The position numbers and the translations under genes were made by a program. DNA of 64,000 bases from Candidatus Multivorans sp. Its GTDB lineage: Bacteria > Acidobacteriota > Thermoanaerobaculia > Multivoradales > Multivoraceae. The notes beneath the pieces are model-generated. The model made no database searches, was not told the DNA's origin, and was given only the letters and a program-made list of their open reading frames with translations. Each line of letters begins with the position of its first letter. Within the stretch, counting starts at the first letter, position 1. Of the stretch, positions 6,677 through 45,254 are shown piece by piece. The DNA is taken from NCBI GenBank assembly GCA_965222875.1, contig CBDCVC010000002.1, positions 802,835-866,834 on the forward strand, given 5' to 3'.

Positions 6677-7154
6677 CCGGAGGGCATCGTGCGAGCCGGG
6701 GCGGCGGAGTTGCGGACGATCGGCCTGACGTTGTGACGACAGAAGAAGACTCGCGACGGGGACGGGGCTACGTTACCCGGTGCAGAGTGGAGCCCGCAAC
6801 TCGTCTGACATTCCCCTTCATCTATCCAGCTCTCTTAACATGGCGTCCGCTCCCTTTCACCACGGGTGGAGCCAGGGTGTGCCCCTACACCTGAGGTGAA
6901 TCCCTACGAAGGAAGGAAGTAGAGCCTGAACCTCCAATCGGAACAGGAACTGCGCCGCACACGGCACGCGGCCGGCCGTTTACTGCTCTCCTCTAGCAGC
7001 CCGTGGTAGAAGTCCGTGTCGCACCGAGAGCGGTCAGGCGCCCGTCCGGCAAGGCGCGACGAGGGAGCATATCGGGCCATATTCGACCGAGGAGCAACGA
7101 TGGCGGGCGGGATGCATGGCCGCTCGAATGCAGCGCGACTTCTGCCACGGGCTG

Positions 7155-10100
7155 CTAGGTCGCGACCTTGGCTTCCGTATCACCAGCCGCCAGAGCATTC
7201 ATGTACGCCAGGATCAGGTTGTTGCTCCGGTAACCACCGAACTCCGCCTCGTCCTGCCGCCGGACGATCGGAAACGTTCCCATCACATACTCCGCATCCT
7301 CGCTGGACAGTCCGTAGAGCAGGAAGTACAGCGCGTCCAAACGGGCTCGCAGGTGCCGGCGCCCCTCCTCGTCCCAGGCGAACGGCGGTCCGTCGTACCC
7401 GAGGTCCTTGGCGAACGGCTCCATGTCGTGCGCCGTGTAGGTCAGACGGAGGACGTGATCGTGGACGATGTCCAGAGCAGTCTTGTTCCCGAACTGGCGC
7501 TCGTAGTCCCCGGCCGCGATGACCGGCAACTGCTCGACGATGAACCAGTTCAGATGCTGGCCTTGGACCTTCTGCCGGGCAACGAAGTCGAACACGAAGG
7601 AGTTTAGGTTGGCGGCGAGCAGCCACAGTGCCTCGGCGTCCGCCACAGTTGAGTCGGAGCCACTGGGCACAAGCAAGGGCAGCGTGTTACCTACGCCAGA
7701 GCGAGGCACGAGAGCCGCGATCATGGTGCGGACGTTCGTCGGCGCGGTAACGTCCTTGAAGGCGAGTGCCCAATCGAGACTCCCAGGCCAGTCCATGTCA
7801 TCGGCCGACACCCAGAACTGCGGAGCGGGCGACCAACTCGGATTGGCATGCTCCTCCAACGTCGCCTCTCGCGGCTGCGCCGGACGGTTCAGGTTCTCCG
7901 GGTTCAACACCACGCTCGCCGCTCGGTGGTCGAAAGCCTGGACCATCTTGCCTTCATACAGGGGCAGCCAGGCATCCTCACCTCGTTTCCATCTATTCCC
8001 AGCGACCGGATAGCAGCCGTCTGCTTCGAGTTCCGCAGCTGTCCGAAACAGGTGGGAGTCATTCGTCATGTGGAACATCGTCTTGTAGCGAACCGGCCAT
8101 GCGCGACGCTCACCACCGCTCGACCGGTCCACCAGCACCGGATGACGTTCGTAGATGCGCCTAGTGATCTCAGCGTCTCGCCGTGTGCGGAACACCGGCG
8201 CCGTGCCGGTGTTCGGATTGACCCGCGTGAAATCGGCCGGGCTCAGGGGGAAGCACCGTTCCGGGTCGCTCAGATCTCCTGCGCTATCCAGGAAGAACCC
8301 GCACGGAGTCTCCGCGAACGTCCGTTCGGCGCCGCCGAGAATCAGAGCGGAGAACTTGAAGCTCCGGTGGACATCCGGGAAGAACGGCGGCAGACCGGTC
8401 CCGAGCCGACGATTCTCGAAGTCGAACAAGCCCGCCACCCGGCCGCGGGTGGACATCGACTGGAAGAACGGCGCGGCCGTCTTGTCGGCGTAGATACCTG
8501 AAGGCACGAGCAGCCCCATCAGGCCGCCCGGCCTGAGCACGTTCAGCGTCCGCTCGACGAACAGCGAGTACAAGTTGATGTCGCCCCTGCCGAGCAACGG
8601 ATAGTCGCCTGAAGTCCGGAACAGCCTCAGGAGGCTGTCGGCGCGTTGCTTCGCTTCGTCGAACCCGGCGGCCAGCGGTTCGCCCCGGTCGCGGAGCTTC
8701 TTGATGCCCTTCCGCCGCAAAGCCGCGGTGGGAGCGCGGGCAAGCTCCGGGTCGCGGGTCCCGAACCACTCCACTTCCTGCAGTTTGATCCGGTCCCAGG
8801 GAGGATTGCCGATCACCGCATCGAACCCGCCCTCTGGGCTGCGCCGCTGCCAATGTCGCCAGACTCCCGGGAAGGCAACCTCCCAATGCAGGAAGGTCTC
8901 CCGTTCGGCCAGGGCGCGGGCATCGCGCCATAGCTCGACGAATCTCGAGAGGCCGGCGTCGTCCGAACTGGCCGATGTCGAATCGATGGCTCCCGGACCC
9001 TCTGCGAGGAGTGAATACGCCCTGGCCGGATAGGCGCCTATCACTTCGAGCAATCCACGCGTCTCGAACTCGTTGCGCTGCTTCTTCTTCATGCCCGCGG
9101 TCAGCCAGCGCAAGGCGCACAGGAAGTCGAGCACGCGGCGTAACTCGGAGGTCGCCTGGTCGACACCCTCGAAGAGCCTGGCCGACTCTCGCACCTCCGC
9201 CACGTCCGCGTCGGACATCTCCTCGATCAGCTCCATCCCGGCAACCGCGTTCTCGGCGCCCTGGATGGCGCTGGAAGCGATCAGCCCACCAAGGCGGCTG
9301 AGTTCGTCCGTTCCATCGCCGACCCTGAGTCCGACGAGAGAATCGCCGCACCGCAGATGATGATCCAGGAACGACAGCGGCGCACCGACGGTGAAGCTGT
9401 GCAGCCACAGCGACACCTTGGCCAGCTCCACCGTCAGGCGGTTCTTGTCCACGCCGTAGATACAGCGCTTGAGCACCATCCGCCGGATGATCGCCTGATC
9501 CGTGAGTTGCGCCTCGTCGATCACCCATTCCGACTCCGCGGCTCGCAGCAGGATGCCATGACGGATGGCCTCGATGCGCCGGACCAGTGGCGACTCGTAC
9601 GGCTCTTCCAGCCAGACCGGCACCGCCGGCACGTACTCGATGAGTTCCGCCACGAAGTCGGACAGGAAGTCCACGGCAGTGACCAGGAAGTGACCGCTTC
9701 CCATTGCCGGATCGAGCACCTTTAGACCCAGCACGGCCTCCGCCGGGTCAATCAGCGCCAACTCCGCCAAGCGCTCGTCCTTGGTCCTGCGGTCGCTCTT
9801 CAGTTCCTCGGCCTTCGCCTCGAAGGCGCGTAGCCGCTCTTCCGCCAGCGGCTTCAGCGACTGCTCGACGATCAGATCGACCAACTCCTGGGGCGTGTAG
9901 AAGCTGCCACTGTCCTTGCGGGCAAAGCGGTTGGGCCGGACCTTGACCGCGCCACTCGGCTCCCGAAAAGGCTCGCGCTCCAGGAGCCGCTCGTAGAGCG
10001 AACCAAGTTGTTGGACCGACATGTCACGGTAGTTGACGAACCGGGCCCGGCCATCGGCTCCTTCCCCTAGGTGGCTGAGTCCGAAGATGACCGGCGCGGT

Positions 10101-11584: not shown

Positions 11585-13030
11585 ATGATTGACAAACAAA
11601 CCGGCATGAGCAGCAAGGAGCGCATGGGCGAGGAGATCGCGGCGCTCGCCGCGCGCATTGACGCGGCGACCTATGAGCTGCTCGTCCTGATCCGCAAGTT
11701 CGATGAAAAGGAAGGCTGGAACCGCGGCTTCCTCACTTGCGCCCACTGGCTCACCTGGCGGATCGGTCTGGCGCCCGGCGCGGCCCGTGAGCGGGTGCGA
11801 GTCGCCCGGGCTCTGGGCGACCTGCCCTTGATGAGTGCGGCAATGAGCAGGGGCGAGCTCTCCTACTCCAAGGTGAGGGCGCTCACCCGCATCGCCACGC
11901 CCGACACCGAGCAGTCGCTGGTGGACCTGGGCAAGACCGGAACCGCGGCGCAGGTCGAGCGAGTGGTGAGAAGCTGGCGAAGGATCGACCGCACGGTCGA
12001 GGCCTATGACGATGAGCTGCGCGACGCGTCGAGTCACGTGACGACCCACATCGACGAGAACGGCATGTTCGTGATCCGCGGATGTCTGGCGCCGGAGGCG
12101 GGCGAAGTGCTGATGAAGGCACTCGATGCGGCGGGCGACAGGCTCTATGCCGAGCAGCGGGAAGACAAACCACCGGTCGGCAAGATCCGCGCCGATGCGC
12201 TTGCCCTCGTGGCCGAGAGCGCGCTCAGGGCCGGTCTCGATCCGGGATCGAGCGGTGACCGCTACCTGGTCGTGGTTCATGCGAACGAGGCGGAGCTGAC
12301 GGCGCAGGAGAGCGCGACGGCTGACAGCCGGGCTCACGTTCCCGCGGGAACGTCCGGGGCTCGCGTTCCCACGGAAACGCGAGGGGACCGCGACACGGAT
12401 GCGGGCGAGACGCCGGCGTTGCCAGGAGTTGCCAACGGCGCCTGGCTCGGGACCGCCCATGTCCCCGTTTCCGCGGAAACAGCCCGGAGGATCGCCTGCG
12501 ACGCCGGCAGAGTCTCGATGGCCCACCGGAACGGCCAGATCCTGAGCGTTGGCCGCAAGACCCGCACGATTCCGCCGCCGATCCGCCGGGCCCTGGAGTT
12601 TCGCGACCAGGGTTGCCGCTTCCCCGGCTGCACATCGCAGCATTGCGACGCTCACCACATCGTCCACTGGGCCGACGGCGGCGAAACGAAGCTCTCGAAC
12701 CTCGTGCTTCTCTGCCGCCGGCACCACCGCCTGCTCCACGAAGGCGGCTTCACCGTGAAGATGAACGAGGAACGCGCCGTTCAGTTCCGCGACAAACGTG
12801 GTCGGCCGCTGGAGCGCAGCCCGGCGCCGCCACCAGTTGGCTCGTACCCTGCCCGCGAGCTGATCCGCCAGTTGGAGGACGCCGGCATCCTGATCACCGG
12901 CAAGGAGTCAATGCCGGCCTGGGACGGCACACCGATGGACCTGCCCTACGTGATGGAGTGCCTGTGGCGACCGCCGCCGCATCTCGAAGCAGCGGTTGCC
13001 CGGGAACGAAACACATCGCACGCCGCGTAG
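11585..13030 (+). CDS. DUF222 / HNH endonuclease-signature protein (REP13E12-like family)
   Basis: 481 aa with an N-terminal DUF222-like region and a C-terminal HNH region with Cys/His ligands (GCRFPGCTSQHCDAHHIVHWADGGETKLSNLVLLCRRHHRLLHEGG). Confidence 0.8.
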   Translation: MIDKQTGMSSKERMGEEIAALAARIDAATYELLVLIRKFDEKEGWNRGFLTCAHWLTWRIGLAPGAARERVRVARALGDLPLMSAAMSRGELSYSKVRALTRIATPDTEQSLVDLGKTGTAAQVERVVRSWRRIDRTVEAYDDELRDASSHVTTHIDENGMFVIRGCLAPEAGEVLMKALDAAGDRLYAEQREDKPPVGKIRADALALVAESALRAGLDPGSSGDRYLVVVHANEAELTAQESATADSRAHVPAGTSGARVPTETRGDRDTDAGETPALPGVANGAWLGTAHVPVSAETARRIACDAGRVSMAHRNGQILSVGRKTRTIPPPIRRALEFRDQGCRFPGCTSQHCDAHHIVHWADGGETKLSNLVLLCRRHHRLLHEGGFTVKMNEERAVQFRDKRGRPLERSPAPPPVGSYPARELIRQLEDAGILITGKESMPAWDGTPMDLPYVMECLWRPPPHLEAAVARERNTSHAA

Positions 13031-15775: not shown

Positions 15776-16694
15776 CCACTTCCCGTTTCTCTCGTTCCGC
15801 TTCGACGCCGTGACTTCCCTGCCCGCAGCTCTCACCGACGCGCAGTGGCCGCGGGCACTCGTGCGCCAGCTCCGGCGCGGGCGGGAGCTGGTGGGCAATG
15901 GTCCCGCAATCGGAATCCAGGAGACGGACGCCGATCTGTTCGCCACGCGGCTTCGCGGTGTCGACCTGTTGCTCGGCGGCGGGATCTGCCGCGGGCAGAC
16001 GGTCGAGTTGGTCGGCCACCGAAGCAGCGGTCGCTTCTCCCTGGTGCTGGAGCTCCTGGCCGGCGCCACCCAGAGCGGTGAATCGGCGGCGCTGGTCGAC
16101 CTGGGAGATCACTTCGATCCACAGGCGGCGGCGCGCGCCGGGGTCGTCCTCGAACGGCTGCTCTGGGCGCGGCCCCAGCGATTGAAGCAAGCGCTGGGCA
16201 GTGCCGAAGTGCTGATCGGCGGCGGCTTCCCCCTGGTCGCGATCGACCTCGGACTGCCTCCGGTGCCCGGCGGCCGCGGCAAGGAGTCCGCGTGGTTGCG
16301 GCTGCGGCGGGCGGCGCTGGATCACCAGGCGGCGCTGCTGATCGCCAGCCCGTACCGCGCCGGCGGTACGGCGCCGCAGAAGATTCTCGAACTGGGTTCC
16401 CGCGCGTCGCCGGTCCGGAATGCGGGCGAGACGCCCGCGTTCCCAGGGGGCGAGACGCCGCCGGTTCGCGCTCTCTGGGCGCAGGCCGCGCCGAGAAGCC
16501 CGCGGTTGCTCGACGGGCTCGCGACCCGCCTGGAACTCGCCAAGTCGCGCGGCGCACGGCCGGGCGCCGCGACCGATGTCGAACTGCGCGTTCGCACCAG
16601 CAGCCTGCGGCGCCCCCTGCCCGGCACGCCGTCCCGACCTGCGAAGAACAGCTCCGCCGGCTCGCCCGCCGAGGTGCTGAGACGTGCCGGCTAA
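15762..16694 (+). CDS. imuA: ImuA-like RecA-fold protein of the imuA-imuB-dnaE2 mutagenesis cassette (start uncertain)
   Basis: The pattern TRLRGVDLLLGGGICRGQTVELVGHRSSGRFSLVLELLAGA...AALVDLGDHFDPQAAARAGVVLERLLWARP...LIGGGFPLVAIDLG is typical of ImuA/SulA-like proteins. It lies immediately upstream of, and overlaps, imuB. The ORF-track start is 15729; GTG at 15806 is an alternative start. Confidence 0.6.
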   Translation: MMLSSHFPFLSFRFDAVTSLPAALTDAQWPRALVRQLRRGRELVGNGPAIGIQETDADLFATRLRGVDLLLGGGICRGQTVELVGHRSSGRFSLVLELLAGATQSGESAALVDLGDHFDPQAAARAGVVLERLLWARPQRLKQALGSAEVLIGGGFPLVAIDLGLPPVPGGRGKESAWLRLRRAALDHQAALLIASPYRAGGTAPQKILELGSRASPVRNAGETPAFPGGETPPVRALWAQAAPRSPRLLDGLATRLELAKSRGARPGAATDVELRVRTSSLRRPLPGTPSRPAKNSSAGSPAEVLRRAG

Positions 16695-20097: not shown

Positions 20098-21846
20098 ATG
20101 GCAATCGGCTTGCGAATGACAGTTCACTCCGAAAGACGGGAGGTCGTCGCAGCCGTCATGGTCGGCGTGGCGCTCCTTCTTCATCAGGCCGCCAACGCCC
20201 AGGACTTCGCCGAACTCCTGGAGATCCGGCGCGTCAAGGAGACGCTGGACCTGAGCGAGGTGCCGGAACCGGACCTGACCGGGGTTCCCGCGGTCGACGG
20301 GCAGCGTCTTCAGGAGTACCGGTCGCTCACCGCGAACGCCCTGGAACACGCCGCGGGGCCTCTCGAGGCGCAGTTGGCGGCGAACACCTACGGCGACCTG
20401 TGCGCGCGCTACCTGCACTACGAGCTCCACGACGCGGCGGCCGGCTGCCTGGATCAGATCAGGGAGCTGGCGCCGGCGGACTTCCAGTGGGCCTACTTCC
20501 AGTTGCTGCTGGACATTGCGACCGGCAACTTTGAAGGCGCCCTCTCGAGCGCCGAACAGGCGCTCGCCATGCGGCCGGACGACCCGCCGACCTTGATTCG
20601 CCTGGCCGAACTCCACGTCGCGGCCGGCGACATCGACGCCGCCGAAGCCGCGTACGAAGCGGCGCTTGCGGCCTATCCGGAGAGCGCCACGGCCCGCGTC
20701 GGCCTCGGCTACATCGCAATGGAACGCGGCGATCCGGCGCGCGCGCTCGAGATCTTCCAGGAAGTCGCCGCGTCGCAGCCCGAGGGCAGCGAGGCGAATC
20801 ATCACGTCGGCCTCGCCTACCGCGCATTGGGTGATGGCGACCGGGCCGTCGAGGCGTGGCGCCTGAACCAGGACATTCAGATCCCGATGTACGACCCGCT
20901 GATCGAACGCCTCAGGCCGCTCGAGGAAGATGTGATCCTGCCGCTCGACCGCGCCGTCGCCGCCGCCGCGGAGGGCGACCACCAACGGGCGGTCGGGCTG
21001 TACGAAGAGATCCTCCAAGCGAACGAGGCGGACGACGAAGCGCACTTCCGCCTGGCGGGCTCGCTGCTGGTGCTCGGCGAGGCCGTGCGCGGCGAAGGGC
21101 ATCTACGCCGGGCGATCGCGCTGAACACCGATCACGCCGGAGCGCACTTTGCCCTCGCCATGTTCCTCGCTCAAGCCGGACGCCGCAGCGACGCCGCCCA
21201 ACACCTGGAACGGGCGGCCGATCTCGCGCCCCAGAACCTGCCCTGGCGTCTTCAGCGGGCGCAGATGCGGGCCGCCTCGGGCAACACCGCCGGCGCCATC
21301 GACGAACTCAGGCAGATCGTGGCCCTCGACCCCGGGATGATCGAAGCACGGCGACCGCTCGCCGCCCTGCTCGTCGGCGCGGGCCGGGCCGAAGAAGCCG
21401 CCGCCCAGTTGCAGGCCCTGGTCGCGCTGACGCCGGACGATCTGCAGGCGCGCTTCAACCTCGGGCTGATGCTGTTCCAGACCGGCCGCTACACCGAGGC
21501 GCGCGCGGCTCTGGACGAAGCTCTGGGGCGCTTCCCCAGCGACATCGCCACCCGCCACCTGCTGGCGCGGCTGCTTGCCGTGAGCCCCGACGAGGCGGTG
21601 CGCGACGGCGCACGGGCGGTCGAGCTGGCGCAGTCGGTGGTCGACGAACAACCCGCACTCGACCACCTCGAGACGCTGGCGATGGCCCTGGCCGAGGCCG
21701 GGCGGTTCGACGACGCCGTCGCTTGGCAGCAACGGACGCTCGAACGGGAACGGGCCGAGGCCGGTGGTAACTCGTCCCAACGGCTCGATCGGCTGGCGCT
21801 GTACCAGGCGCGGCAGCCGCTGCGGGCCCCGCGGCGTCAGAACTAG
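20098..21846 (+). CDS. TPR-repeat protein with N-terminal signal peptide
   Basis: Signal-like VAAVMVGVALLLHQAANAQD, followed by many Ala-rich TPR-like repeats. Confidence 0.7.
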   Translation: MAIGLRMTVHSERREVVAAVMVGVALLLHQAANAQDFAELLEIRRVKETLDLSEVPEPDLTGVPAVDGQRLQEYRSLTANALEHAAGPLEAQLAANTYGDLCARYLHYELHDAAAGCLDQIRELAPADFQWAYFQLLLDIATGNFEGALSSAEQALAMRPDDPPTLIRLAELHVAAGDIDAAEAAYEAALAAYPESATARVGLGYIAMERGDPARALEIFQEVAASQPEGSEANHHVGLAYRALGDGDRAVEAWRLNQDIQIPMYDPLIERLRPLEEDVILPLDRAVAAAAEGDHQRAVGLYEEILQANEADDEAHFRLAGSLLVLGEAVRGEGHLRRAIALNTDHAGAHFALAMFLAQAGRRSDAAQHLERAADLAPQNLPWRLQRAQMRAASGNTAGAIDELRQIVALDPGMIEARRPLAALLVGAGRAEEAAAQLQALVALTPDDLQARFNLGLMLFQTGRYTEARAALDEALGRFPSDIATRHLLARLLAVSPDEAVRDGARAVELAQSVVDEQPALDHLETLAMALAEAGRFDDAVAWQQRTLERERAEAGGNSSQRLDRLALYQARQPLRAPRRQN

Positions 21847-21898
21847 CAACACCGGTTCATACCGGCGCTGCGCCGGATGCGGGCAAGATGCCCGTGTT

Positions 21899-21955
21899 CC
21901 ATCCGTGCGCCCGATGGCGGGCGCACGGAGTGGTTCGCGGGTGGCGCGGAATCGC
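21899..21955 (+). repeat. Conserved palindromic hairpin element, copy A
   Basis: CCGTGCGCCCG-ATGG-CGGGCGCACGG (11-bp perfect stem at 21904-21929) followed by GAGTGGTTCGCGGGTGGCGCGGAATCG. About 57 nt recur at 43531-43590 with 5 mismatches. Confidence 0.6.
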
Positions 21956-22060
21956 GCCGCCCGGGTTCCCAGGGCGGATAAGCGCGGCGATCTCCCGGCT
22001 GTCGACGCCTGGGTTCCCAGAGGTCTTGCTATCCATTACCGCCTGATTTACGCTTACCGG

Positions 22061-25000
22061 ATGGCTCCCAAGGTCAAAGTACCGGCCCGCAACATGGGGC
22101 TGTCCGGCTCGATGCGCAAGGGCAGCAACCGCGGCGGCGGTAACGGCAACGGCCTGCTCGACGCCCGGGGCGAGCCGAACCCCGGCTATGCCGCGCCGGG
22201 GGCGGTCAAGGAGCAACTGCGCCGGCGCGACCTCCAGCCCCCGCCGAAGCGCCGTCGACGGCCGCCGTCCTACGCCGAACTCCACGCTGCCTCGTCGTTC
22301 TCCTTCCTGCGCGGCTCGTCGCAGCCCGAGGATCTGGTGGCGCGGGCGGCGGCGCTCGGGCTGCCGGCGGTCGCCCTGCTCGACCGGAACGGCGTCTCCG
22401 GCGCGCCGCGCTTCTACAAGGCGGCGCGGGAGGCGGGGATCCGGGCGCTGGTCGGCGCCGAGGCGGTCATCGACCGGCCGCAGGCGTCGGCGGTTTCGCG
22501 GCAGCGCGAGGAGCGGCCGATGCTGGACGATCAGGAAACCCGCGTCCAGCTTCTGGTGAGGAGCCGACAGGGCTACCGCAACCTCTGCCGCCTGCTGACC
22601 GCCGGGGCGCTCAACCACCCGAAGGGCGAGGCCCGGATCGACTGGACGCTGCTCGAGGAGCACGCGGCCGGGCTCCACTGCCTGGCCGGCGCCGCAGCCG
22701 ACCCGATCGGACGGGCGCTGACGCGGGAAGGGCAGGAAGCGGCCGGTCGCCAGCTCGAACGGCTGCACGCCGTCTTCCCGGGCCGCCTGCATGTGGAGCT
22801 CGCGCGGCACGGCATCCGCGCCGAGGAACATCGCAACCAGGCCCTGGTCCGGCTGGCGCAGAGGCTGGCGGTACCCGTTGTGGCCACCGGCGGCGTGCGC
22901 TACGCCACCGCCGCCGACAAGCCCCTCTACGATCTGATGACCGCGATCCGGCACCACGTAACGGTCGACGACGCCGGCGCGCGCCTCGCCCGCTGCCGGC
23001 AGCGGCGTCTGAAGAGCCCGGAAGAGATGCACCGGCTGTTCGCCGATCTGCCGCAGGCCGTCCACGCCGCGCACGAACTGGCCGCGGAACTCGACTTCAC
23101 CCTCGCCGACCTCGGCTACCGCTTCCCGGACTACCCGCTTCCCGCCGGCGAGACGGCGATCTCCCATCTCCGCGAACTGACCTGGCAGGGGGCGCGGGAG
23201 CGATTCCGGCCGCTCACCGCCCGCGCCGGGGCGCAACTCGAGAAGGAGCTCGCGCTGATCGAGAAGCTCGACCTCGCCGGCTACTTCCTGATCGTCTGGG
23301 ACATCGTCCGCTTCTGCAAGGAGCAGCGGATCTTCGCCCAGGGCCGCGGCTCGGCCGCCAACTCCGCGGTCTGCTATGCGCTCTCGATCACCGCGGTGGA
23401 CCCGGTGAAGATGGACCTCCTGTTCGAGCGCTTCCTGTCCGAAGAACGGGGCGAATGGCCGGACATCGACATCGATCTGCCGTCCGGCGACCAGCGCGAG
23501 AAGGTCATCCAGTACGTCTACCGGCGCTACGGCCGGCACGGCGCGGCGATGACCGCGAACGTGATCACCTACCGCGACCGCATGGCCGCGCGCGAGGCGG
23601 CCAAGGCGCTGGGGTGCTCCAAGTCCCAGGTCGACCGGCTGGCCAAAGGCCTCGGCCACTGGCACTCCGCCCTGAGATACAGCGGCCTCTCCCGCGGCGA
23701 CAGCAAGGAGATGGACGAGGAACTGACGGAGCTCGGGTTCGATCCCCGCGACCGGCGCATCCAGATCTTCGTCCGGTTGTGGCGGCAGCTTCAGAACCAT
23801 CCCCGCCACCTGAGCCAGCACTCGGGCGGCATGGTGCTCTGCGCCGGCCGACTGGACGAGATCGTGCCGCTCGAACCGGCGGCGATGGAGAACCGGGTCA
23901 TCGTCCAGTGGGACAAGGACGACTGCGCCGATCTGGGGCTGATCAAGGTCGACCTGCTCGGCCTCGGCATGCTGAATGCGCTGGAGGAGGCGGTGCCCCT
24001 GATCCACCGGCACGAAGGCAGGGAGATCGACCTGGCTCACCTGCCGCCCGACGACCCGGCGGTCTACGAGATGATCTGCCGCGCCGACACGGTCGGGGTC
24101 TTCCAGATCGAGAGCCGGGCGCAGATGGCGTCCCTGCCGCGCCACCGGCCATACAAGTTCTACGATCTCGTGATCCAGATCGCGATCATCCGCCCCGGCC
24201 CGATCGTCGGCGGGATGGCCCATCCCTTCTTCGAGCGCCGGGTGGGCCGCGAGGAGGTCACCTACCCTCACCCGCTGCTCGAGCCGATCCTGCGCCGCAC
24301 CCTCGGCGTACCGATCTTCCAGGAACAGATCCTCAAGGTCGCCATGGTCGCGGCCGGCTTCAGCGGCGGCGAGGCGGAGGATCTGCGGCGCGCGATGGGC
24401 TTCAAACGCTCCGTCGAGCGAATGCAGGAGATCGAACGCCGCTTACGTTCCGGCATGAACGAACGCGGCATCCAGGGCGTTGCCCAGGAACAGATCGTCA
24501 AGGCGATCACGTCGTTCGCGCTCTATGGTTTCCCGGAGTCGCACTCCGCCAGCTTCGCCCTGATCGCCTACGCCAGCGCCTACCTGAAGCGGCACCATCC
24601 GACCGCCTTCTTCCTGTCACTCCTGAACGCCTGGCCGATGGGCTTCTACCACCCGGCGACCCTGGTCCGCGAAGCGCAGCGCGCGGGCAGCGTGGTGCTG
24701 CCGATCGACGTGAACGAATCGGGGGTCAGGTGCCGTTGGGAAGACAGGCCGGCGGAGAGCGACGGGGTGGCGCGGCGCGGGCGCGCGGGCGATCCGCCGC
24801 GGGGAGCGATCCGCCTCGGGCTGCGCTACGTCAAGGGACTGCGGCACGAGGCGGCCGAACAGATCGAAGCCGAGCAGGCGGGAAAGCCGTTCGGGAGCAT
24901 TGAGGATCTGGCCGAGCGCTGCCGCTTGCGCCGGAAGGAACTCGCGGCGCTGGCGTCCATTGGCGCGTTGCCAGAGCGCGGCCGGCGGGCCGCGCTGTGG

Positions 25001-25492
25001 CAGGCGGCCCAGGTCGAGAAGCCGAAGGGGCCGTTGTTCGCGAGTCTTCCAACCGCCACCCCCTCGCCGCTCGACGAGATGACGCCAATGGAAGAGACCG
25101 CCGCCGACTTCCGCGTCGCCTCGATCACCACCGGACCTCACCCGATGGAGTACTACCGCCGGGCGCTCCACCGCCGCCGCGTCGTGCCCGCCGCCAAGCT
25201 CCCGGACCGGCCCGCCGGCCGCCGCGTGCGCACCGCCGGCTCGGTCATCGTCCGCCAGCGCCCCGGCACCGCCCGCGGGCTGCTGTTCCTGACCCTCGAG
25301 GACGAAACCGGCATGAGCCAGGCGGTCGTCATGCCGGACCAGTTCAAGAAGCACCGCCGCACGATCGTCTCGTCCTCCGGCCTGATCGTCGAAGGCGTGC
25401 TGCAGAAGAAGGACGGCTCGCTATCCGTCAAGGCGGACAAGTTCTGGCCGATCGACCGGCTGGAGAGAGTACCGAGCCACGACTTCCGGTGA
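22061..25492 (+). CDS. dnaE2: Error-prone DNA polymerase III alpha, DnaE2 (ImuC); start uncertain (22061, 22094 or 22112)
   Basis: PHP-domain start YAELHAASSFSFLRGSSQPEDLVARAAALGLPAVALLDRNG and the DnaE2-type polymerase core. The N-terminal extension is Gly/Arg-rich. Confidence 0.85.
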   Translation: MAPKVKVPARNMGLSGSMRKGSNRGGGNGNGLLDARGEPNPGYAAPGAVKEQLRRRDLQPPPKRRRRPPSYAELHAASSFSFLRGSSQPEDLVARAAALGLPAVALLDRNGVSGAPRFYKAAREAGIRALVGAEAVIDRPQASAVSRQREERPMLDDQETRVQLLVRSRQGYRNLCRLLTAGALNHPKGEARIDWTLLEEHAAGLHCLAGAAADPIGRALTREGQEAAGRQLERLHAVFPGRLHVELARHGIRAEEHRNQALVRLAQRLAVPVVATGGVRYATAADKPLYDLMTAIRHHVTVDDAGARLARCRQRRLKSPEEMHRLFADLPQAVHAAHELAAELDFTLADLGYRFPDYPLPAGETAISHLRELTWQGARERFRPLTARAGAQLEKELALIEKLDLAGYFLIVWDIVRFCKEQRIFAQGRGSAANSAVCYALSITAVDPVKMDLLFERFLSEERGEWPDIDIDLPSGDQREKVIQYVYRRYGRHGAAMTANVITYRDRMAAREAAKALGCSKSQVDRLAKGLGHWHSALRYSGLSRGDSKEMDEELTELGFDPRDRRIQIFVRLWRQLQNHPRHLSQHSGGMVLCAGRLDEIVPLEPAAMENRVIVQWDKDDCADLGLIKVDLLGLGMLNALEEAVPLIHRHEGREIDLAHLPPDDPAVYEMICRADTVGVFQIESRAQMASLPRHRPYKFYDLVIQIAIIRPGPIVGGMAHPFFERRVGREEVTYPHPLLEPILRRTLGVPIFQEQILKVAMVAAGFSGGEAEDLRRAMGFKRSVERMQEIERRLRSGMNERGIQGVAQEQIVKAITSFALYGFPESHSASFALIAYASAYLKRHHPTAFFLSLLNAWPMGFYHPATLVREAQRAGSVVLPIDVNESGVRCRWEDRPAESDGVARRGRAGDPPRGAIRLGLRYVKGLRHEAAEQIEAEQAGKPFGSIEDLAERCRLRRKELAALASIGALPERGRRAALWQAAQVEKPKGPLFASLPTATPSPLDEMTPMEETAADFRVASITTGPHPMEYYRRALHRRRVVPAAKLPDRPAGRRVRTAGSVIVRQRPGTARGLLFLTLEDETGMSQAVVMPDQFKKHRRTIVSSSGLIVEGVLQKKDGSLSVKADKFWPIDRLERVPSHDFR

Positions 25493-27959: not shown

Positions 27960-29784
27960 TCACAGGTCGTCCGGGAGGGTCTGGGTCAGGTTGCCGTTGG
28001 CTACCACCAGGTCCTCCCAGCCATCGTTGTTGATGTCCGCGAACACCGACGACCAGGACCACCGGCCCATCGCTACGTCGGCCTGGACGCTCCGGTCGAC
28101 GAAGCCGCCGCCTGTGCCCGCGAACAGCGAATTGCCGCGCGCCATCCGCTGGACCTCCGCCAGCGGACCGGCGCGCTGCCGGTCGCGCTCGAACTTCCGC
28201 TGGTAGGTGATCCGGTTGCCCGCGGCCGAGAACATGTTGCCGACGTAGACGTCCATGCGGCCGTCGCGGTTGTAGTCGGCCCAGCTCACCGACATCCCGG
28301 ACGAGATGTCCTCGACTCCGGCATCCGCCGCCACGTCGACGAACGTGCCGCCGTCGTTGCGGTACAGGTTGTTGCGGCCGTAGTCGTTCGCCACGTAGAG
28401 GTCGGCGTCGCCGTCGCCGTCGTAGTCCTCCCACGACGCCGCCAGGCTGAAGCGGCGGTTGTTGCGGTCGAGCCCCGCCGAGGCCGTCGCGTCGACGAAC
28501 CGGAAACCGCCGTCGTTGCGGAGCAGCACGTTGCGGCCGCCGTTGTTCGCGTCGTGGTACGGCACCGGGCTCGCCACCCCGCGCTCGTCGTAGGCGCGGC
28601 GGTAGGCGCAGACGTAGAGGTCGAGGTCGCCGTCGCCGTCGTAGTCGGCCGCCGACAGCGAGTTGCTGTCGGGGATGTCGCCGGCGATGTAGCGGACGCG
28701 GGCGAAGCCGCCGTCGCCGTCGTTCTCGAGCACCAGCACCGCCGGCCGGCTGGAGAGCGCCAGGTCCGGGTCGCCGTCGTTGTCGAGATCGACGAACAGC
28801 CCGGCGAGGGCGCGCTCCAGGTAGTCGACCGCCGCCGCTGCCGAGCGGTCGTCGAACGTGCCGTTCGGGTTCTGTAGGTAGAGACGGTTCGGCAGTCCGC
28901 CCTGCTCGGGCAGGAAGATGTCCTCCAGACCGTCGCCGTTGACGTCGGCGACGGACACGCCCTGCCATCCCGTCTTGTTGTAGCCCGCCGCCTTGGTGAT
29001 CCGGTTGAGCCAGGCGTCCGGCGGCTGCAGCAGTTGCTCCCGGTAGCTCGGGTTGTGACCGACGGCGGCTTCGGTGACGTCAACGAACAGGGGCCCTCCG
29101 GCCGCGGAGGTCTCCTCGTAGTCGCTCACCTCGACCGTGCGCAGGAGCGGCTGGCCGGCGCCGTCCGGCGGCACCGTCCAGGTCGTCGTCCAGACCGCGT
29201 TCAACTGGCGACTGCCGCCTGCTCCCGGTGCCGACGCCTCGAAGTAGGAGCGGGTACTGAAGCTCGCCGCGTCGCCCTCGATCGTGAAGAGCTTGAAGTC
29301 GGCCCGCGGCGATCCGCTGCCGGTCAAGCGCCCGCCCAACACCAGCAGCGCGTCCACGAAACCCTCGACGCCCCTATAGGCGAAGCGCCCGGGCTGGCCA
29401 ACACTCACAGCGAAAGTCGCACCGGTGTAGCGCTCGCTCAATTCATCGGGGACGAAGCCCCGGGTCTCGAACGTCTCGTCAACCGCCTCATCCAACGCAT
29501 CCAGCGACACCGCGGCCACGCCGCCTACGAGCCAGCCCGCGATGCGCTTGAGCTGCGCCTCGGCCTGTTCGCTGAGCGCTTCGCTGTCCCAGCCATCGGC
29601 ACGGGGATCAACGGCAGCGGCGAAGTTCTCCGGCCCGAAGGCGGGAGATGTCTCAACAGCCGCGGCCGCCGCGCGGCGATCCTGTGCCACCGCCGTCGGT
29701 GAGGCGCCCAGCAGGACTATCGCCGAGAACGTAGCCGCAGCAGGCAGAACAGACGGTGGCTTCAACAAGTTCTTGAGTGCCATT
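27960..29784 (-). CDS. N-terminal part of the same CRTAC1-like protein: signal peptide plus FG-GAP/VCBS repeats
   Basis: The probable start MALKNLLKPPSVLPAAATFSAIVLLGASPTAVAQD is at 29784. Repeated DxDGDGDxDL FG-GAP motifs follow. It ends at TGA 27960-27962. Confidence 0.7.
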
Positions 29785-40075: not shown

Positions 40076-43000
40076 TTAGGGGCGGCAACTATCAGTGAAC
40101 GCACCACTGTCCGTAATGGCCGGTGCCGGTGGACCGGGCTCCTTCGTGTATGTCCAAATCGTGTCCGTGTCCGTGTCGGTGACCGTGATGTCGAGCCCCA
40201 GGTCCGTGGCGGCAGCCGAGTACACCCAGTGGTTGCCGTTCACGGCACAACCGTCGAGCACTTTGATCAGCATCTCCCAGTTGTTCGGATCGAAGAAGTA
40301 GAAGAGGCCGGAGTTGTTCGTCCCGCCGGGCACCATGCTCGCTGCACCCTCTTGACCATCCGCCGTGGACCAGTCCACCTTCACCTCGAAGCGGCCATCG
40401 ACGAGGCACAGGGACGAACCCGCTTCCCCGCAACCCGAATGGGAGGCGGCAGGGTGGGTCAGCGACTCCGACGCGATCGGGGCGACTGACGAGGAGCAGG
40501 CCTGTGGGAATGCCGTGGCGTCCGTGATGGCGGGAGCCGGTTGTCCGGGCTCGTTTCGGTACTCTCTGAAGCCGCCAGTGCTGGTGTTCGTGACCCGGAT
40601 CGAGTAGCCGAGGTCCGTGGTCGAGGCTCCGTACACCCAGTGGTTGCCGTTGACTGTGCAGCCGTCCAACACCTTGACAAGGATCTCCCAGTTGTCCTCG
40701 TCGAAGAACCGGAACAGCCCGGAGTCCTCCGTGGCCTTGGGCACCACCACAGCCGGACCGCTTCTGGCGTCGCTGGTCCACCACTTCGCCTCCACCTTGT
40801 AGAGACCGTCGTGGAGACAGAGAGTCAGGTCGCTCGCCTCGCACGGTCGGCCGGGGGTCGGATCCGGATCTGGGTCCGGGTCGGGTTCAGGGTCCGTCGT
40901 GGAGATGTTGGCGGAGAACTGCGACCGTCCACCCGTGATGTGGCTCCAGTAATCCGCTACCTGGTCGCGGAATCGAGCTTGCAGAGCCAGCCCGTCGCGG
41001 TCAGGCGATGTGCCCGGTTCCAGCAGATAGACGAAGCCCGCGTTGAAGTCCTTTTTGGCGTTCGCCGCCGAGGGTTTCCGCATGCCGTGGACATCCAGGA
41101 CCTGCTGGATCGACACATTCTCACGCACACCTGTGTACCGCATGCCGGACTGCCTCCGCCCATTCCTGAGGATGAAGAAATCGGGCACTTCGCCTACGTC
41201 GGCGAGCCCCATCAGGTACAGGTCGAGCCAGGAGAAGCCGCCGTTCCACACGCCGTTCAGCTCCGTGAATGTGCCGTCATCGTTGCTGCGCCAATCTCGC
41301 CCTCCCATCAAGGATCTCGGACCGGCCTGGTCCGGGTGCCAGGGGAAGGCCGCGGGTGCATGAAGCCATGCCTGCCAGTGGCACAGGCAACCGTCCCCGA
41401 CCAGCGGTGACGACCGACCATTGCGGTTCCGGGAGACATAGGCGAGCCACAAGTGCGAGAACTCGTGCGCGAACAACCACAGCCCGTAGTCGTAGCGGCT
41501 GTCTTCCCTGACGCCACTCCGGTACACGCGGTCTGAGTAGATCCAGACGGGGGAGACCCACCTGCCCTTGAGTCGCTTTGCACCGCAGGGGGGACCGTCA
41601 ATGGTGCCGCCACGCCCCACGCCCGTCACGGGATCGTTCCCGAAGAACGGCCTGAACGGTGTCGTGGCTTCTTGCTTGTCGGTGCGAAACTGGCTGTGGA
41701 AGACCAACAGATCGAACTCGTCGCCCAAGGAGTTGGCCACGTGACATGCAATGCTGTCGAGATTCCCCACCGTCGCGTAGTTGAACACTTCGTACTGGTA
41801 CTGGGCGGACAGGTTGCTGGTCTCCGACAGGTTCGTGTTGGGGCCGGTCGCACTCGGCAGTCGGAAGAACGCCACTTCGGACGATTCCCCCTCGACGAAG
41901 CTCCCGCCGGCAAAATCAGACGAATTGGCGAACACCGCTACGGGCACTCCCTCAAGGCCAGTGATGTTCGCGAGCAACGCGATGCGGCTGGGGTCTGTCG
42001 TCTCTACGACTCCCGCAACGCCCGCGCCGGATGCCAGCGTCAGCCCCGCATCCGTCACGTAGAGCCGCCAGTCGAAGTCCGAGTCCTCCGAGCCGGTCCA
42101 CCAGGGCTGCTCCACGTCGAAGAACAGGCGGTACACGTACAGGTGCCCCGATGGCGGCACCGGGATCGGCTCTCTCATCGCGAACTCGACGATCACGCCA
42201 CCCGTACCCGACTCCTGCAGTGTCACCTTCAGCAAGTCGAGGTAGCCCGGCAGGCCGGTGTTCCGGCCGTGGCCTATCTCCGTGATGAGGGCTCCCCGCG
42301 TCTTCCTCTCGGGTCCCAGCAGCCCGACAATGCCGTCGCGGAAGGAGATGCTGTTGTCGTAGTTGAGGCGGACACTTCCATCCGCCGCCAGGACGGCCTG
42401 GAAGCGGGTCGGCGTCTGTGGAGCCACACCATGCACGTAGTAAACCGGCTCGGTAGTGGTCCAGGTGACGACCACCCGGTCGACCTGGTGGGCGACGTGC
42501 TGCTTTGCTCCGTGTTGGTCGTAGAACCCACCGAGCAGCGGCTTGAAAAGAGCACTGATGGCCGTCTCATCCACCAGCTTGTGGTTGAGCTGCTGTATCG
42601 TCTCAAATCGGAGCCCGGTGTTCACGTAGTCGTACTGCAGCGGCTTACCGAACGTGATGATGCCCCGGCGACTGACGAACAACGAAGTCCACGTTCTGCC
42701 GGCGAACTCGAAATCGAAGCCCTGGAACGACACCTCCTCACCGGAGCGGACTCGCTCGCCGATGTTCCGCTCCCAGGCAACCGACTGGACCGACCGGAAG
42801 TAGCCGCCTTGCCCATCCGGTGTGAACACCACGGTGCGCCCGCTCAAGTCGAAGAGGTTGGCATCAGTGATGTCGCTCGGCGCGAGTTTCAGGATGATCT
42901 GGTTGTCCGTTGTGGTCCGTACGGTTCTCGACGCCGAATCCACCCGGACGGGGCCATCGTTCACCAGATCGCCCAGGTTGAGGAAGTCGACGGCACCCGG

Positions 43001-43186
43001 TTCAGTGAGATCGACGGGTGGGAGTCGCATGAGCGTGTCCCGGATCTCCTCCGATGCCGACTCGGCGGTACCCGGGACGTTGCCCACCACCGTGAGCACA
43101 GACGCCAGCACCAGCCCGACGCGCAACCGTCTCACGGAGCTCCGCCTCGAATCGTCAAGCGTAGATGATAGCCATGACGCGATCAC
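40076..43186 (-). CDS. Large secreted multidomain protein with a HExxH zinc-metallopeptidase motif and two tandem C-terminal Cys-bounded domains
   Basis: HExxH is [12 protein letters not shown] (PD)n linker reads [11 protein letters not shown]. Two roughly 115-aa repeats each begin C-x-L-C-L-xDGxF-V-xW and contain [21 protein letters not shown]...ITD..AF...C. Confidence 0.6.
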
Positions 43187-43530
43187 GGCCCCAGAGGCCT
43201 TCCCGGACGCCTGTCGGAGACAACTCGGTCGGTGACGATCGCCCCCAGCGTCAGACGCCGCAGGCGTGCTGCCGAAGAAGGCGTACCTGTCGGCCGCCGA
43301 TCGGGACCTCGCCGAAATGGAAGCCGTCCGACGCGAACGACAAATCAGAAACCTGCAGCGTCAGGCCCGGCGCCTGAATCTGGCTCTCGTGCCCACCGAA
43401 CATGCCGCCTGAATCGCGCAACCTGCGCAGCCAACGAGGAACCGCTACACGTTTGTTCCATGGAAGCCGGCGCGGCAGGAACTGGGTGCGCCGGTCCTCT
43501 GGCCGCCAGTCGGCGCGAAGCGGCGGCTGC

Positions 43531-43590
43531 CATCCGTGCGCCCGCTGACGGGCGCACGGACTGGTTCACGGGTCGCGCGGATCGGCCCAC
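43531..43590 (+). repeat. Conserved palindromic hairpin element, copy B
   Basis: CCGTGCGCCCG-CTGA-CGGGCGCACGG (stem 43535-43560), then GACTGGTTCACGGGTCGCGCGGATCGG. It lies 11 bp outside the left IR of the IS1182-family element. Confidence 0.6.
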
Positions 43591-43611
43591 CCCGGTGCCG
43601 GACCTTCTGCC

Positions 43612-45254
43612 GCGCTAGCAGTCTGTCGGACTTCTGCGCGTTGATCTGGGGGTCTGGTGGTTTGTCGGTTAGTTTCGGTGTTCAAGGGAGGTCGACAGGT
43701 ATGCCGAAGTTCATCGAGGCTCACCGCAACCAGCCGTTCCTGCTTCCTCCGGACCTTCGGGACTGGATGCCGGAAGACGATCTGGCTCATTTCGTGGTGG
43801 AGGCGGTGGAACGTGTGCCGATGGAGTCGTTCGTGGTGAACGAGCGGGGTACGGGTTCGGCTCAGTACCCGCCTCGTCTGATGCTGGCTCTTCTGGTGTA
43901 CTGCTACGCGAACGGCGTATTCGGTTCACGCCGAGTCGAGCGTGCGACGTATCGGGATGTCGGGGTGCGTTACCTGGCGGCGAATCTGCATCCGGACCAC
44001 GACACGATCTGCACGTTTCGTCGCAACAACGTGGATGCGATTGCTTCGGCGTTCGAGCAGGTGCTGTTGATGGCGCGGGAGTTGAAGCTGTTGCGGGTGG
44101 GGATGGTGAGCGTGGACGGCACGAAGGTGGACGCGAACGCGAGCAAGCGGAACAGTCTGCGTTACGACCGTGCGATGGAGTTGCGGGCGCAGTTGCAGGA
44201 GGAGATCGCGGGTCTGTTGGAGGAGGCGGAGCGTGCGGACGGCAAGGGCGTTGCCGACCAGGAGGGCTTGCCGGACGAGTTGAAGCGTCGCCGGCGGTTG
44301 AAGGAGAAGCTGGACGAGGCATGCGAGACGACGCTGGAGCGGCGTGCGCTGAGGCGTGCGGAGCGTGAGCGTGTCGAGTACGAGCGCAGGTTGGCGGAGC
44401 GAGAGGAGCGGCCGCCCAATCGTCGTAGCCGCAAGCCGAAGCCTCCGCGCGAGGAGCCGGAGGCGAAGAAGCAGATCAACCTGACGGACAAGGACAGCGG
44501 CCTGATGAAGAAGAGTCGGCGCAGCGAGTACCGCCAGGCGTACAACGCTCAGGCGGTGGTGGACGCCGAGGGGAGTCAGTTGGTGCTGGGCGCCCGCGTC
44601 AGCGGCTGCGCGAACGACAAGCACGAACTGGTCGCGGACGTGGACTCGATGCCGGAGTCGGTGGGAACGGTCGAGCGAGCGCTGGCGGACAACAGTTTCG
44701 CGACTGGCTGCGAGGTGAAGACGCTCGAGGACCGGGGCATCGACGTCCTGGTGTCGACCCGGAAGGAGGACCGTCGCCACCAGCACGACTTCCGGCCCGA
44801 GACTGAGGCGAAGCCCCGGAAAGAGCCGAAATCCGAATGGGTGCGGAAGATGCAGGAGAAGCTGGCCCAGGACGACAACCGCAAGAAGTACAGTCTGCGC
44901 AAGCAGACGGTGGAACCGGTATTCGGGATCGTCAAACACGTCCTGGGATTCCGCCAGTTTCACCTGCGCGAGCTGACGAAGGTGGACGGCGAGTGGAAGC
45001 TCGTCATGCTGGCCTACAACTGCAAGCGCCTGCACAACCTGCTCGCCGCCTGAGCGCCCGTGGGCGCCTCGTCTTCCCTGCGAAAACCGCCTCAACGGCC
45101 GTCGGGCGCGAGCACACGCTCTGCCATCGGCCCCACGAACACGAAATAGCCGATCCGAACGCGACACGATCGCTCACGGCACCACGCCCGAACCGCCTCT
45201 CAGGCTTCGTCGCCCGCCTCCCCGCCGTCCCAAGTCCGACAGACTGCTAGCGCG
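43612..45254. mobile_element. IS1182-family insertion sequence, about 1.64 kb
   Basis: Perfect 23-bp terminal inverted repeats CGCGCTAGCAGTCTGTCGGACTT at 43612-43634, with the reverse complement at 45232-45254. It carries a single transposase gene. No clear TSD was found. Confidence 0.8.
43701..45053 (+). CDS. IS1182-family (IS5-like) transposase
   Basis: RBS GGGAGG. MPKFIEAHRNQPFLLPPDLRDWMPEDDLAHFV is the characteristic IS1182 N-terminus. A central charged coiled region; the DDE-bearing region with C-terminal ...KLVMLAYNCKRLHNLLAA. Confidence 0.9.
   Translation: MPKFIEAHRNQPFLLPPDLRDWMPEDDLAHFVVEAVERVPMESFVVNERGTGSAQYPPRLMLALLVYCYANGVFGSRRVERATYRDVGVRYLAANLHPDHDTICTFRRNNVDAIASAFEQVLLMARELKLLRVGMVSVDGTKVDANASKRNSLRYDRAMELRAQLQEEIAGLLEEAERADGKGVADQEGLPDELKRRRRLKEKLDEACETTLERRALRRAERERVEYERRLAEREERPPNRRSRKPKPPREEPEAKKQINLTDKDSGLMKKSRRSEYRQAYNAQAVVDAEGSQLVLGARVSGCANDKHELVADVDSMPESVGTVERALADNSFATGCEVKTLEDRGIDVLVSTRKEDRRHQHDFRPETEAKPRKEPKSEWVRKMQEKLAQDDNRKKYSLRKQTVEPVFGIVKHVLGFRQFHLRELTKVDGEWKLVMLAYNCKRLHNLLAA

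Follow-up and report, generated by a model that had tools for sequence, protein, structure and literature searches.

Among the palindromic repeats described in bacteria, repetitive extragenic palindromes (REPs) are defined by a GTAG or CGTC tetranucleotide that stays unpaired at one end of a stem-loop (PMC3733652; Di Nocera et al. 2013). They lie mostly 3' of genes, with some sitting inside replication and repair genes, and in Thermomicrobium roseum the GTAG-23 REPs are inserted within repeated small GC-rich palindromes of the form CCGSSCC-n3,4-GGSSCGG; no dedicated transposase is known for REPs of the CGTC kind, and the Rickettsia palindromic elements (RPEs) carry the CGTC tag (PMC3733652). 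Here we consider a 64-kb stretch of Candidatus Multivorans sp. (hereafter 'the window'), in which a palindrome, CCGTGCGCCCG-N4-CGGGCGCACGG, is found twice, and we propose that it is very probably the first hairpin (HP1) of a dispersed, non-autonomous mobile element of the Thermoanaerobaculia, one that resembles REPs and bacterial interspersed mosaic elements (BIMEs) and is recognised as folded DNA. In the literature that could be searched, which is incomplete, we found no account of such repeats for Thermoanaerobaculia or Candidatus Multivorans, nor any report of REPs in this host phylum or class.

An earlier note on this DNA had described the palindrome, together with a conserved 3' flank, as present twice, and both copies are indeed there: exact matches on the forward strand, at 21903-21928 (loop ATGG; copy A) and 43534-43559 (loop CTGA; copy B), each with the flank TGGTTCNCGGGTNGCGCGGA on its 3' side. 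With up to three mismatches allowed, the window holds no further match, and none was returned by 100 dinucleotide-preserving shuffles. A repeat search pairs 21899-21964 with 43530-43595 (66 nt, 83% identity), but the family alignment and the filled and empty insertion sites described below set the limits of the repeated unit somewhat wider, at 68-69 bp (21898-21966, 69 bp; 43529-43596, 68 bp), and place within it two adjacent GC-rich hairpins. The palindrome and flank of the note are thus real but form part of a larger unit, in which the former 'flank' is a second hairpin (HP2; consensus CGGGTGGCGCG-GAT-CGCGCCACCCG). The family consensus reads (T)GCCAT-CCGTGCGCCCG-(A/C)TGA-CGGGCGCACGG-A-N-TGG-TTC-R-CGGGTGGCGCG-GAT-CGCGCCACCCG-GGT(TC), such that the stem of HP1 gains four further pairs (CCAT with A-N-TGG, leaving a 1-nt bulge), and its ends, GCCATCCG... 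on the left and ...CCCGGGT on the right, bear no inverted-repeat relation to each other. HP1 folds as predicted in both copies. Rfam gave no match at gathering score across the whole window, and only weak, chance-level matches at copy A, the best of these being TLS-PK4 (21.7 bits, where the gathering score is 80).

That the window holds just two copies might point to chance, or to a segmental duplication of two copies. The regions around copies A and B, however, give no convincing alignment beyond approximately 75 nt, the likeness stopping where the element and its host repeats end, so that a long segmental duplication does not account for the pair; with hundreds of copies elsewhere, we regard this explanation as having a negligible chance of being right. 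Counting occurrences and tabulating their positions, as set out below, instead gives a high-copy family that is enriched at gene 3' ends.

A scan for the palindrome (loop of 3-8 nt, one genome per species) returned at least 112 matching stretches. Among the matches listed, approximately 100 come from some 21 metagenome-assembled genomes, labelled as Thermoanaerobaculia, Candidatus Multivorans (Acidobacteriota), 'Holophagales', 'Vicinamibacteraceae' or 'Acidobacteria'. Ten matches in Kitasatospora, Streptomyces, Oscillospiraceae and others were held to be unrelated, as their loop lengths differ and they have no common flank. A profile built from the oriented copies and run with nhmmer over 0.96 Mb of loci from about 21 Thermoanaerobaculia genomes, and over the window, recovered 127 full-length copies in the genome loci (loci are cited here by L number) and only the known two in the window; a metagenome set of 77 loci (0.57 Mb) added a further 86, giving approximately 1.5 Mb of sequence around 213 copies. 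Viral contigs gave no match to the element. Copies other than the index copies, which had been selected for an exact HP1 palindrome, number 24 in 803 kb and 13 in 543 kb, or approximately one per 33-42 kb, against one per 32 kb in the window; extrapolating from this density, we would expect some 100-160 copies per genome of 4.5-5.4 Mb, and estimate that our sample covers about 3% of all copies. Orthologous sites in different species share copies, which speaks for long vertical persistence of the family.

Some copies stand in head-to-tail arrays of two to three core units (L026 1962-2185, L068 5078-5226, L066 4358-4507 and L006 3629-3778), in which certain units have a variant HP1 (CCGGGTGCTCG...) or have HP2 swapped for another stem (CGTCTTG...CAAGACG). 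The number of units in an array varies among close relatives, as between L068 and L011, and between L066 and L059.

Compensatory changes hold both stems paired. In an alignment of 123 sequences, scored against a hand-written two-hairpin structure, 96.3% of stem cells are paired, as compared with 27-47% in controls with slid partners, and changes on both sides are seen in 13 of 26 pairs. Compensation is seen in 59 cells, where shuffles give 10.0 +/- 2.6, and none of 500 shuffles reached the observed value on any measure; these counts are to be read in the knowledge that copies are related by descent, and that variation in HP1 comes solely from the non-index copies, since the index copies were chosen for an exact HP1. 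As examples, GGG/CCC in HP2 becomes GTG/CAC in 20 sequences, and the T-A pair at columns 13/33 of HP1 is replaced by A-T, G-C or C-G. The sequence of HP1, stem and loop together, is nonetheless nearly invariant, and 99 of 123 copies have ATGA or CTGA as its loop; the loop of HP2 is variable. RNAalifold, applied to the same alignment, returned four HP2 pairs only (-2.2 kcal/mol) and missed HP1, probably on account of gapped loop columns.

These data bear directly on two alternatives to a mobile element. The first takes the palindrome to be the operator of a dimeric regulator, LexA or another, for dnaE2. Copy A does lie approximately 95 nt 5' of a dnaE-type start codon, with a stem that is a perfect inverted repeat, and the earlier note had accordingly put forward selection on pairing or on a dimeric protein site, as well as a regulator-binding palindrome in the dnaE2 promoter region. 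Selection on pairing is borne out, but the dimeric site is not: compensatory changes in the stem preserve pairing rather than the sequence of a half-site, and more than 200 unrelated genes in more than 20 genomes have the identical palindrome beside them, mostly at their 3' ends. In L023, moreover, the element sits within the orthologous dnaE-type gene and not upstream of it. We consider an operator very remote as an explanation; the association with dnaE2 is incidental, and the palindrome 5' of this gene can be annotated without recourse to regulation. The second alternative, an element selected by the host as RNA, is taken up below with the evidence on gene context. Here we note only that the stems contain G.T and A.C mismatches in similar numbers (30 and 40, respectively), which gives no wobble signature of pairing selected on one transcribed strand; this is a weak indication, because copies occur in both orientations.

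The core behaves as a discrete insertion with fixed ends and without target-site duplication, and has been received by several outer repeats, each of which is also present in unfilled form. A repeat of 166 bp with CTAG at both ends, similar to a MITE (a miniature transposable element with inverted repeats), stands empty in both the window and L112 (CATCGT^TGCTCC), but filled in L008, L014, L029, L034, L035, L056 and L093 (CATCGT[GCCAT...CCCGGGT]TGCTCC). The type-1 hairpin host, GGATGCGGGCRAGAYGCCCGCGT^TCCCAGG, is empty in L020, L108, L046 and L062 and, at 21875-21973 of the window, is filled by copy A; the type-2 hairpin host, GCGCCGGCCT^TCTGGCCGGC, has many empty copies; and the host of copy B is found empty in L032, as GCGCCGGCT^GCCGGACCTTCTGCCGCGC. 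The position of the core is often the foot or the loop of another GC-rich hairpin repeat.

Taking one representative for each of 34 distinct flank contexts among 122 copies, we find G at position -2 in 25, T at -1 in 32, T at +1 in 24 and C at +2 in 21. These flanks point to 5'-(S)GT^TC-3' as the target, with the core landing between the two T residues, although one T is ambiguous and a G^TTC parse would be equally valid. Duplication of a 2-bp GT target is ruled out, as the right end still reads GGGT in CT^TC hosts. Three of the contexts account for 48, 20 and 14 copies, and much of the copy number therefore reflects amplification of composite hosts.

The small host hairpins also appear to be gained and lost, possibly in frame: relative to the related contig L051 (6987-6996), the window has approximately 51 extra nt (17 codons) at 16418-16472, within a called coding sequence, and these include an unfilled type-1 hairpin. 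A second class of small hairpin, CCGGCGC-GAA-GCGCCGG (window 43507-43528 and 21862-21876), has the head CATCCG in common with HP1. A perfect hairpin follows 14.8% of CATCCG occurrences, against 0.3-0.8% for control hexamers; since roughly 100 of the 140 excess cases are HP1 itself, support for a common-head motif comes down to some 25 copies of the second class.

Gene context was assessed with a self-trained codon-usage caller, with the elements masked, and the calls are approximate. The 113 intergenic regions that bear a copy comprise 67 tandem, 36 convergent and 10 divergent regions, against a background of 474, 124 and 111 in the same loci; convergent regions are enriched and divergent ones depleted (chi-square p = 1.5e-4 by region count, 1.9e-7 by intergenic length). 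The median distance from an upstream stop codon to a copy is 35 nt. In tandem regions 43 copies are in sense and 26 in antisense orientation (binomial p = 0.053), and in convergent regions the split is 19 to 17. Some copies stand directly 5' of start codons.

The two window copies conform to this picture, and their gene context is as first described. Copy A sits between a TPR gene and a dnaE-type gene, 51 nt 3' of the stop codon of the former (20158-21846) and 94 nt 5' of the ATG at 22061; the latter gene (22061-25492) encodes a DnaE-type polymerase, in which Pfam recognises PHP, DNA_pol3_alpha, finger, HHH_6 and OB domains. Around copy A no sigma-70-like promoter and no T-tract terminator were detected, with no terminator-like site in 21700-22200. 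Copy B adjoins an insertion sequence (IS) and, once this is conceptually removed, lies 34 nt 3' of the stop codon of a LeuA/CimA-type gene (45263-46828, minus strand; HMGL-like and LeuA_dimer domains), a distance that agrees with the family median.

Three of the 127 copies are intragenic and in frame. In L009 (3858-3938) the core lies within the beta-propeller of a prolyl oligopeptidase, and one single Pfam match to the propeller extends across the insert; in L004 (5682-5762) it lies within a GltD-like pyridine-nucleotide oxidoreductase, where the Pfam domain match likewise spans the insert. The third, in L023 (5545-5726), is a composite of approximately 172 extra nt (about 57 codons) in the dnaE-type gene orthologous to that of the window, where it replaces 24756-24765; it combines the core with a type-2 hairpin and with a 33-nt unit, coding for GDAAGGEAPGP, that is present three times in tandem, and stands just before the HHH_6 domain. 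On the two sides of this insert, the L023 and window genes are 91% and 87% identical (blastn). Three of six in-frame candidates (L090, L008 and L010) were dropped, as stop codons were met on read-through.

It is at this point that an RNA-level explanation has to be weighed, namely that the hairpins are host-selected elements at gene 3' ends, acting as terminators without a U-tract or as stabilisers against 3'-exonucleases, and that they owe their copy number to this role and not to selfish mobility. The enrichment 3' of stop codons and in convergent regions would fit such a role, as would the high stability of the hairpins and the conservation of their pairing, and REPs are known to act in this way in other bacteria (PMC3733652). 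Neither hairpin, however, is followed by a T-tract in either orientation, the tails being ACTGGTTC and GGTTCC; copies are also found directly 5' of starts, in divergent regions and in frame within genes; insertion goes into other repeats at a fixed target; and a generic RNA hairpin would have no need of a near-invariant HP1 sequence and loop. We therefore judge a host-selected RNA element to be quite unlikely, and the earlier suggestion of a U-tract-less terminator finds no support as a primary identity. If the element has an effect as an RNA 3'-end hairpin, this is likely to be secondary, and would leave the insertion behaviour unaccounted for. Purifying selection against insertions into promoters and coding sequences probably underlies the 3'-end bias. 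The REP/MITE-like candidate of the earlier note is the one that our observations favour, in view of the high copy number in related genomes, the precise filled and empty sites, the 3'-end enrichment and the occurrence in both orientations.

Bringing these findings together, we suggest the following course of events for a mobile REP/BIME-like element. The two hairpins would fold on single-stranded DNA and be recognised there by an enzyme supplied in trans, most likely an HUH tyrosine nuclease or transposase of the type of the REP-associated tyrosine transposases (RAYTs) or of IS200/IS605, which might cut beside the foot of a hairpin at S^T(K)C; the core would land in GC-rich hairpin repeats, either at their foot or within their loop, and would then spread along with these hosts. 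We favour an enzyme of the HUH Y1 type because such systems join hairpin recognition, asymmetric ends and duplication-free insertion by a short motif (PMC3337134, PMC3733652). A DDE transposase is an unlikely mechanism for the core, given the lack of both terminal inverted repeats (TIRs) and target-site duplication.

A number of observations weigh against this proposal. Searches by tblastn over approximately 1.5 Mb with IS200 TnpA, IS608 TnpA and E. coli RayT, which were of limited sensitivity, gave spurious matches only, as did a regular expression for the HUH...Y motif run on the genome loci (0.96 Mb) together with the window. Clustering of the neighbouring proteins revealed no gene family, mobile-element gene or recombinase that recurs beside copies. 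Saying this, the lack of an enzyme is weak evidence, as the sample takes in only about 3% of copies by our estimate and a single-copy gene could lie elsewhere. HP1 and HP2 differ in sequence, whilst the ends of IS200/IS605 elements usually carry similar hairpins, and the heads, CCAT and GTTC, match neither of the REP tags (GTAG, CGTC). Orientation of the element shows no association with local GC skew, and so gives no sign of lagging-strand targeting. Amplification of composite hosts means that independent insertions of the core are fewer than its copies; and what the orthologous copies show is long vertical persistence, not current activity.

Several candidates were set aside. The apparent enzyme matches proved to be a PD-(D/E)xK-like open reading frame (ORF; L106), an antisense frame of a VOC-family gene (L094), a sulfotransferase (L170) and a translated repeat (L147), and the ORFs found between inverted pairs of copies encode PIN, UbiA, sulfatase and C39 peptidase proteins, not transposases. 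Among the copies examined, none has its two halves split by an ORF. An apparent bias in replication strand, seen as a pattern between the first and second halves of chromosomes, was also dropped: the assembly checked, OZ251997.1 (L070), does not begin at dnaA, so that position 0 is unusable as an origin, and no association with local GC skew is seen.

The same element might alternatively be moved as a circle by a site-specific recombinase (tyrosine, serine or IS110-like) acting at a common G^T(T/G)C core, and not by a single-strand HUH nuclease. The junctions of filled sites are alike, with SGT|GCC or SGT|TCC on the left and GGGT|TCC on the right and no duplication; the head-to-tail junction in tandem arrays, GGGT-(G/T)(C/T)CAT, is that expected of a circle; and no Y1 gene was seen in the loci searched. 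On the other hand, a double-strand core site would need no compensated pairing in two hairpins, no recombinase gene recurs near copies, and the common core is just 3-4 nt long. On balance we think movement as a circle unlikely. With similar reserve, we also entertain the tentative idea that this is a third REP-like kind, an untagged fixed heterodimer of hairpins that homes to GT^TC at a hairpin foot or loop, in which case the enzyme would differ from the RAYTs that REPIN systems flank with their own repeats and might belong to an undescribed HUH or recombinase lineage in Thermoanaerobaculia, and targets might be recognised by their fold.

Measured against described systems, the proposed mobile element comes closest to REPs and BIMEs. 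It shares with these the high copy number of short GC-rich stem-loops lying mostly 3' of genes in both orientations, the combination of two unlike palindromic units in a fixed pair, the insertion within repeated small palindromes, and in-frame copies that include one in a replication gene. It differs in its heads, which are CCAT (CAGT on the other strand) for HP1 and GTTC(R) / GAACC for HP2 in place of the GTAG/CGTC tag, in its perfect 11-bp stems, in being a fixed heterodimer of two hairpins, and in having no RAYT found nearby. The REPIN-RAYT system of Bertels and Rainey (REPINs being doublets of REPs) offers a further parallel, in that REPINs are non-autonomous units of approximately 70-110 bp with selected hairpins, present in hundreds of copies and inherited vertically for long periods across species, and their movement is thought to be single-stranded and without target duplication (PMC3116915, PMC3337134). 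A REPIN, however, is made of two inverted copies of one REP and forms one long hairpin, whereas here two unrelated hairpins stand side by side and fold separately; nor was a flanked single-copy RAYT gene seen in the 1.5 Mb, which covers about 3% of copies.

Classical MITEs, such as Correia and ERIC and the CTAG-flanked repeats of the window, are likewise small, non-coding, multi-copy and intergenic, and the core rides inside MITE-like repeats, but it has no TIRs and no duplication beyond the one ambiguous T. The RPEs resemble it as palindromic repeats that lie in frame within protein genes and keep the reading frame; here, just 3 of 127 copies are intragenic, and the sequences are unrelated. 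With the ends of IS200/IS605 elements and the palindrome-associated transposable elements (PATEs) it shares subterminal hairpins at both ends, asymmetric ends without TIRs, the lack of duplication and a short, specific insertion motif. In IS608-type elements the left and right hairpins are alike and the cleavage sites lie 10-19 nt away from them, whereas our hairpins are unlike, the ends lie 3-5 nt from the stems, and no TnpA gene was found in the searched loci.

Small palindromic repeats shape the intergenic regions of bacteria, as RNA hairpins at gene ends, as IS targets, as breaks in assemblies and, occasionally, as added peptides. The present family provides an unusually clean record of nested, duplication-free insertion in an uncultured clade, with filled and empty sites in several hosts and some of them in one window, and for purposes of annotation it follows that approximately 100 like sites per genome should not be taken for operators, terminators or small RNA genes. 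Should the enzyme be identified, it could widen the known range of hairpin-guided DNA transposition.

The window features discussed above, and the IS next to copy B, are collected in Table 1.

Table 1. Coordinates of the core element, its host repeats and associated features in the window
Feature	Position	Strand	Remarks
Copy A core element (TCCAT...CCCGGGT)	21898-21966	+	nhmmer 21896-21972, 66.7 bits; ends from filled/empty type-1 hosts
HP1 of copy A	21899-21933	+	Perfect 11-bp stem 21903-21913/21918-21928, loop ATGG; extension CCAT / A-G-TGG with G21930 bulged; RNA fold z = -5.8 (region)
HP2 of copy A	21938-21963	+	Arms 21938-21948/21953-21963, loop GAAT, one T.G pair
Copy B core element (GCCAT...CCCCGGT)	43529-43596	+	nhmmer 43528-43601, 61.8 bits; HP1 43534-43559 perfect, loop CTGA
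HP2 of copy B	43569-43593	+	Decayed, several mismatches; not formed in fold of copy B
Copy A host, left part	21862-21897	+	Small hairpin CCGGCGCTGCGCCGG, then type-1 hairpin GGATGCGGGCAAGATGCCCGTGT; right part TCCCAGG 21967-21973
Copy B composite host, left part	43470-43528	+	TIR-like GCGCGGCAGGAAC 43470-43482; unfilled type-2 hairpin ACTGGGTGCGCCGGTCCTCTGGCCG 43481-43505; small hairpin CAGTCGGCGCGAAGCGGCGGCT 43507-43528
Copy B composite host, right part	43597-43618	+	GCCGGACCTTCTGCCGCG, then CTAG; inverted counterpart of left TIR-like end at 43604-43615
166-bp MITE-like repeat, unfilled	6993-7158	-	18-bp TIR CAGCCCGTGGYAGAAGTC, CTAG at both ends; core site in other genomes corresponds to 7096/7097; multi-copy in relatives
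Type-1 host hairpin, unfilled	16418-16447	+	Intact target GAATGCGGGCGAGACGCCCGCGT^TCCCAGG
Second type-1 host hairpin, unfilled	12397-12426	+	GGATGCGGGCGAGACGCCGGCGT^TGCCAGG
Site of the L023 in-frame insertion, in dnaE-type gene	24756-24765	+	blastn, alignment, translation, Pfam
Insertion sequence, 1628 bp	43619-45246	+	15-bp terminal inverted repeats CAGTCTGTCGGACTT / AAGTCCGACAGACTG; transposase ORF 43701-45053; Pfam DDE_Tnp_1, DUF772, DDE_Tnp_1_6

The IS is flanked by direct repeats of CTAG (43615-43618 and 45247-45250) and, as CTAG stands on both of its sides, we take it to have entered at the terminal CTAG of the composite repeat that holds copy B (43470-43618). Its insertion is thus later than that repeat. 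The palindrome itself had been raised as a possible IS target, but the IS sits at the CTAG of another, larger host repeat, with 22 bp separating it from copy B; repeats that end in CTAG may be preferred targets of this IS type.

On the 3' side of copy A the sequence GGGTTCCCAG is found twice, at 21963-21973 and at approximately 22010-22022, where the second occurrence looks like a remnant of the right end of the core with its host junction; L086 has a similar partial duplication. Directly downstream of the copy B region, an ORF of 1016 amino acids (40076-43126, minus strand) has a strong coding signal and no Pfam match at E <= 0.001, and contains an internal direct repeat of 163 nt (40173-40335 and 40584-40746). 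Elsewhere in the window, at 28240-28950 and inside the gene at 27960-29690, direct repeats of 30-50 nt fall into several families rich in GTCGCCGTCGCCGTCGTAGTC; read on the minus strand, they look like an Asp/Gly-rich protein motif in repeated form.

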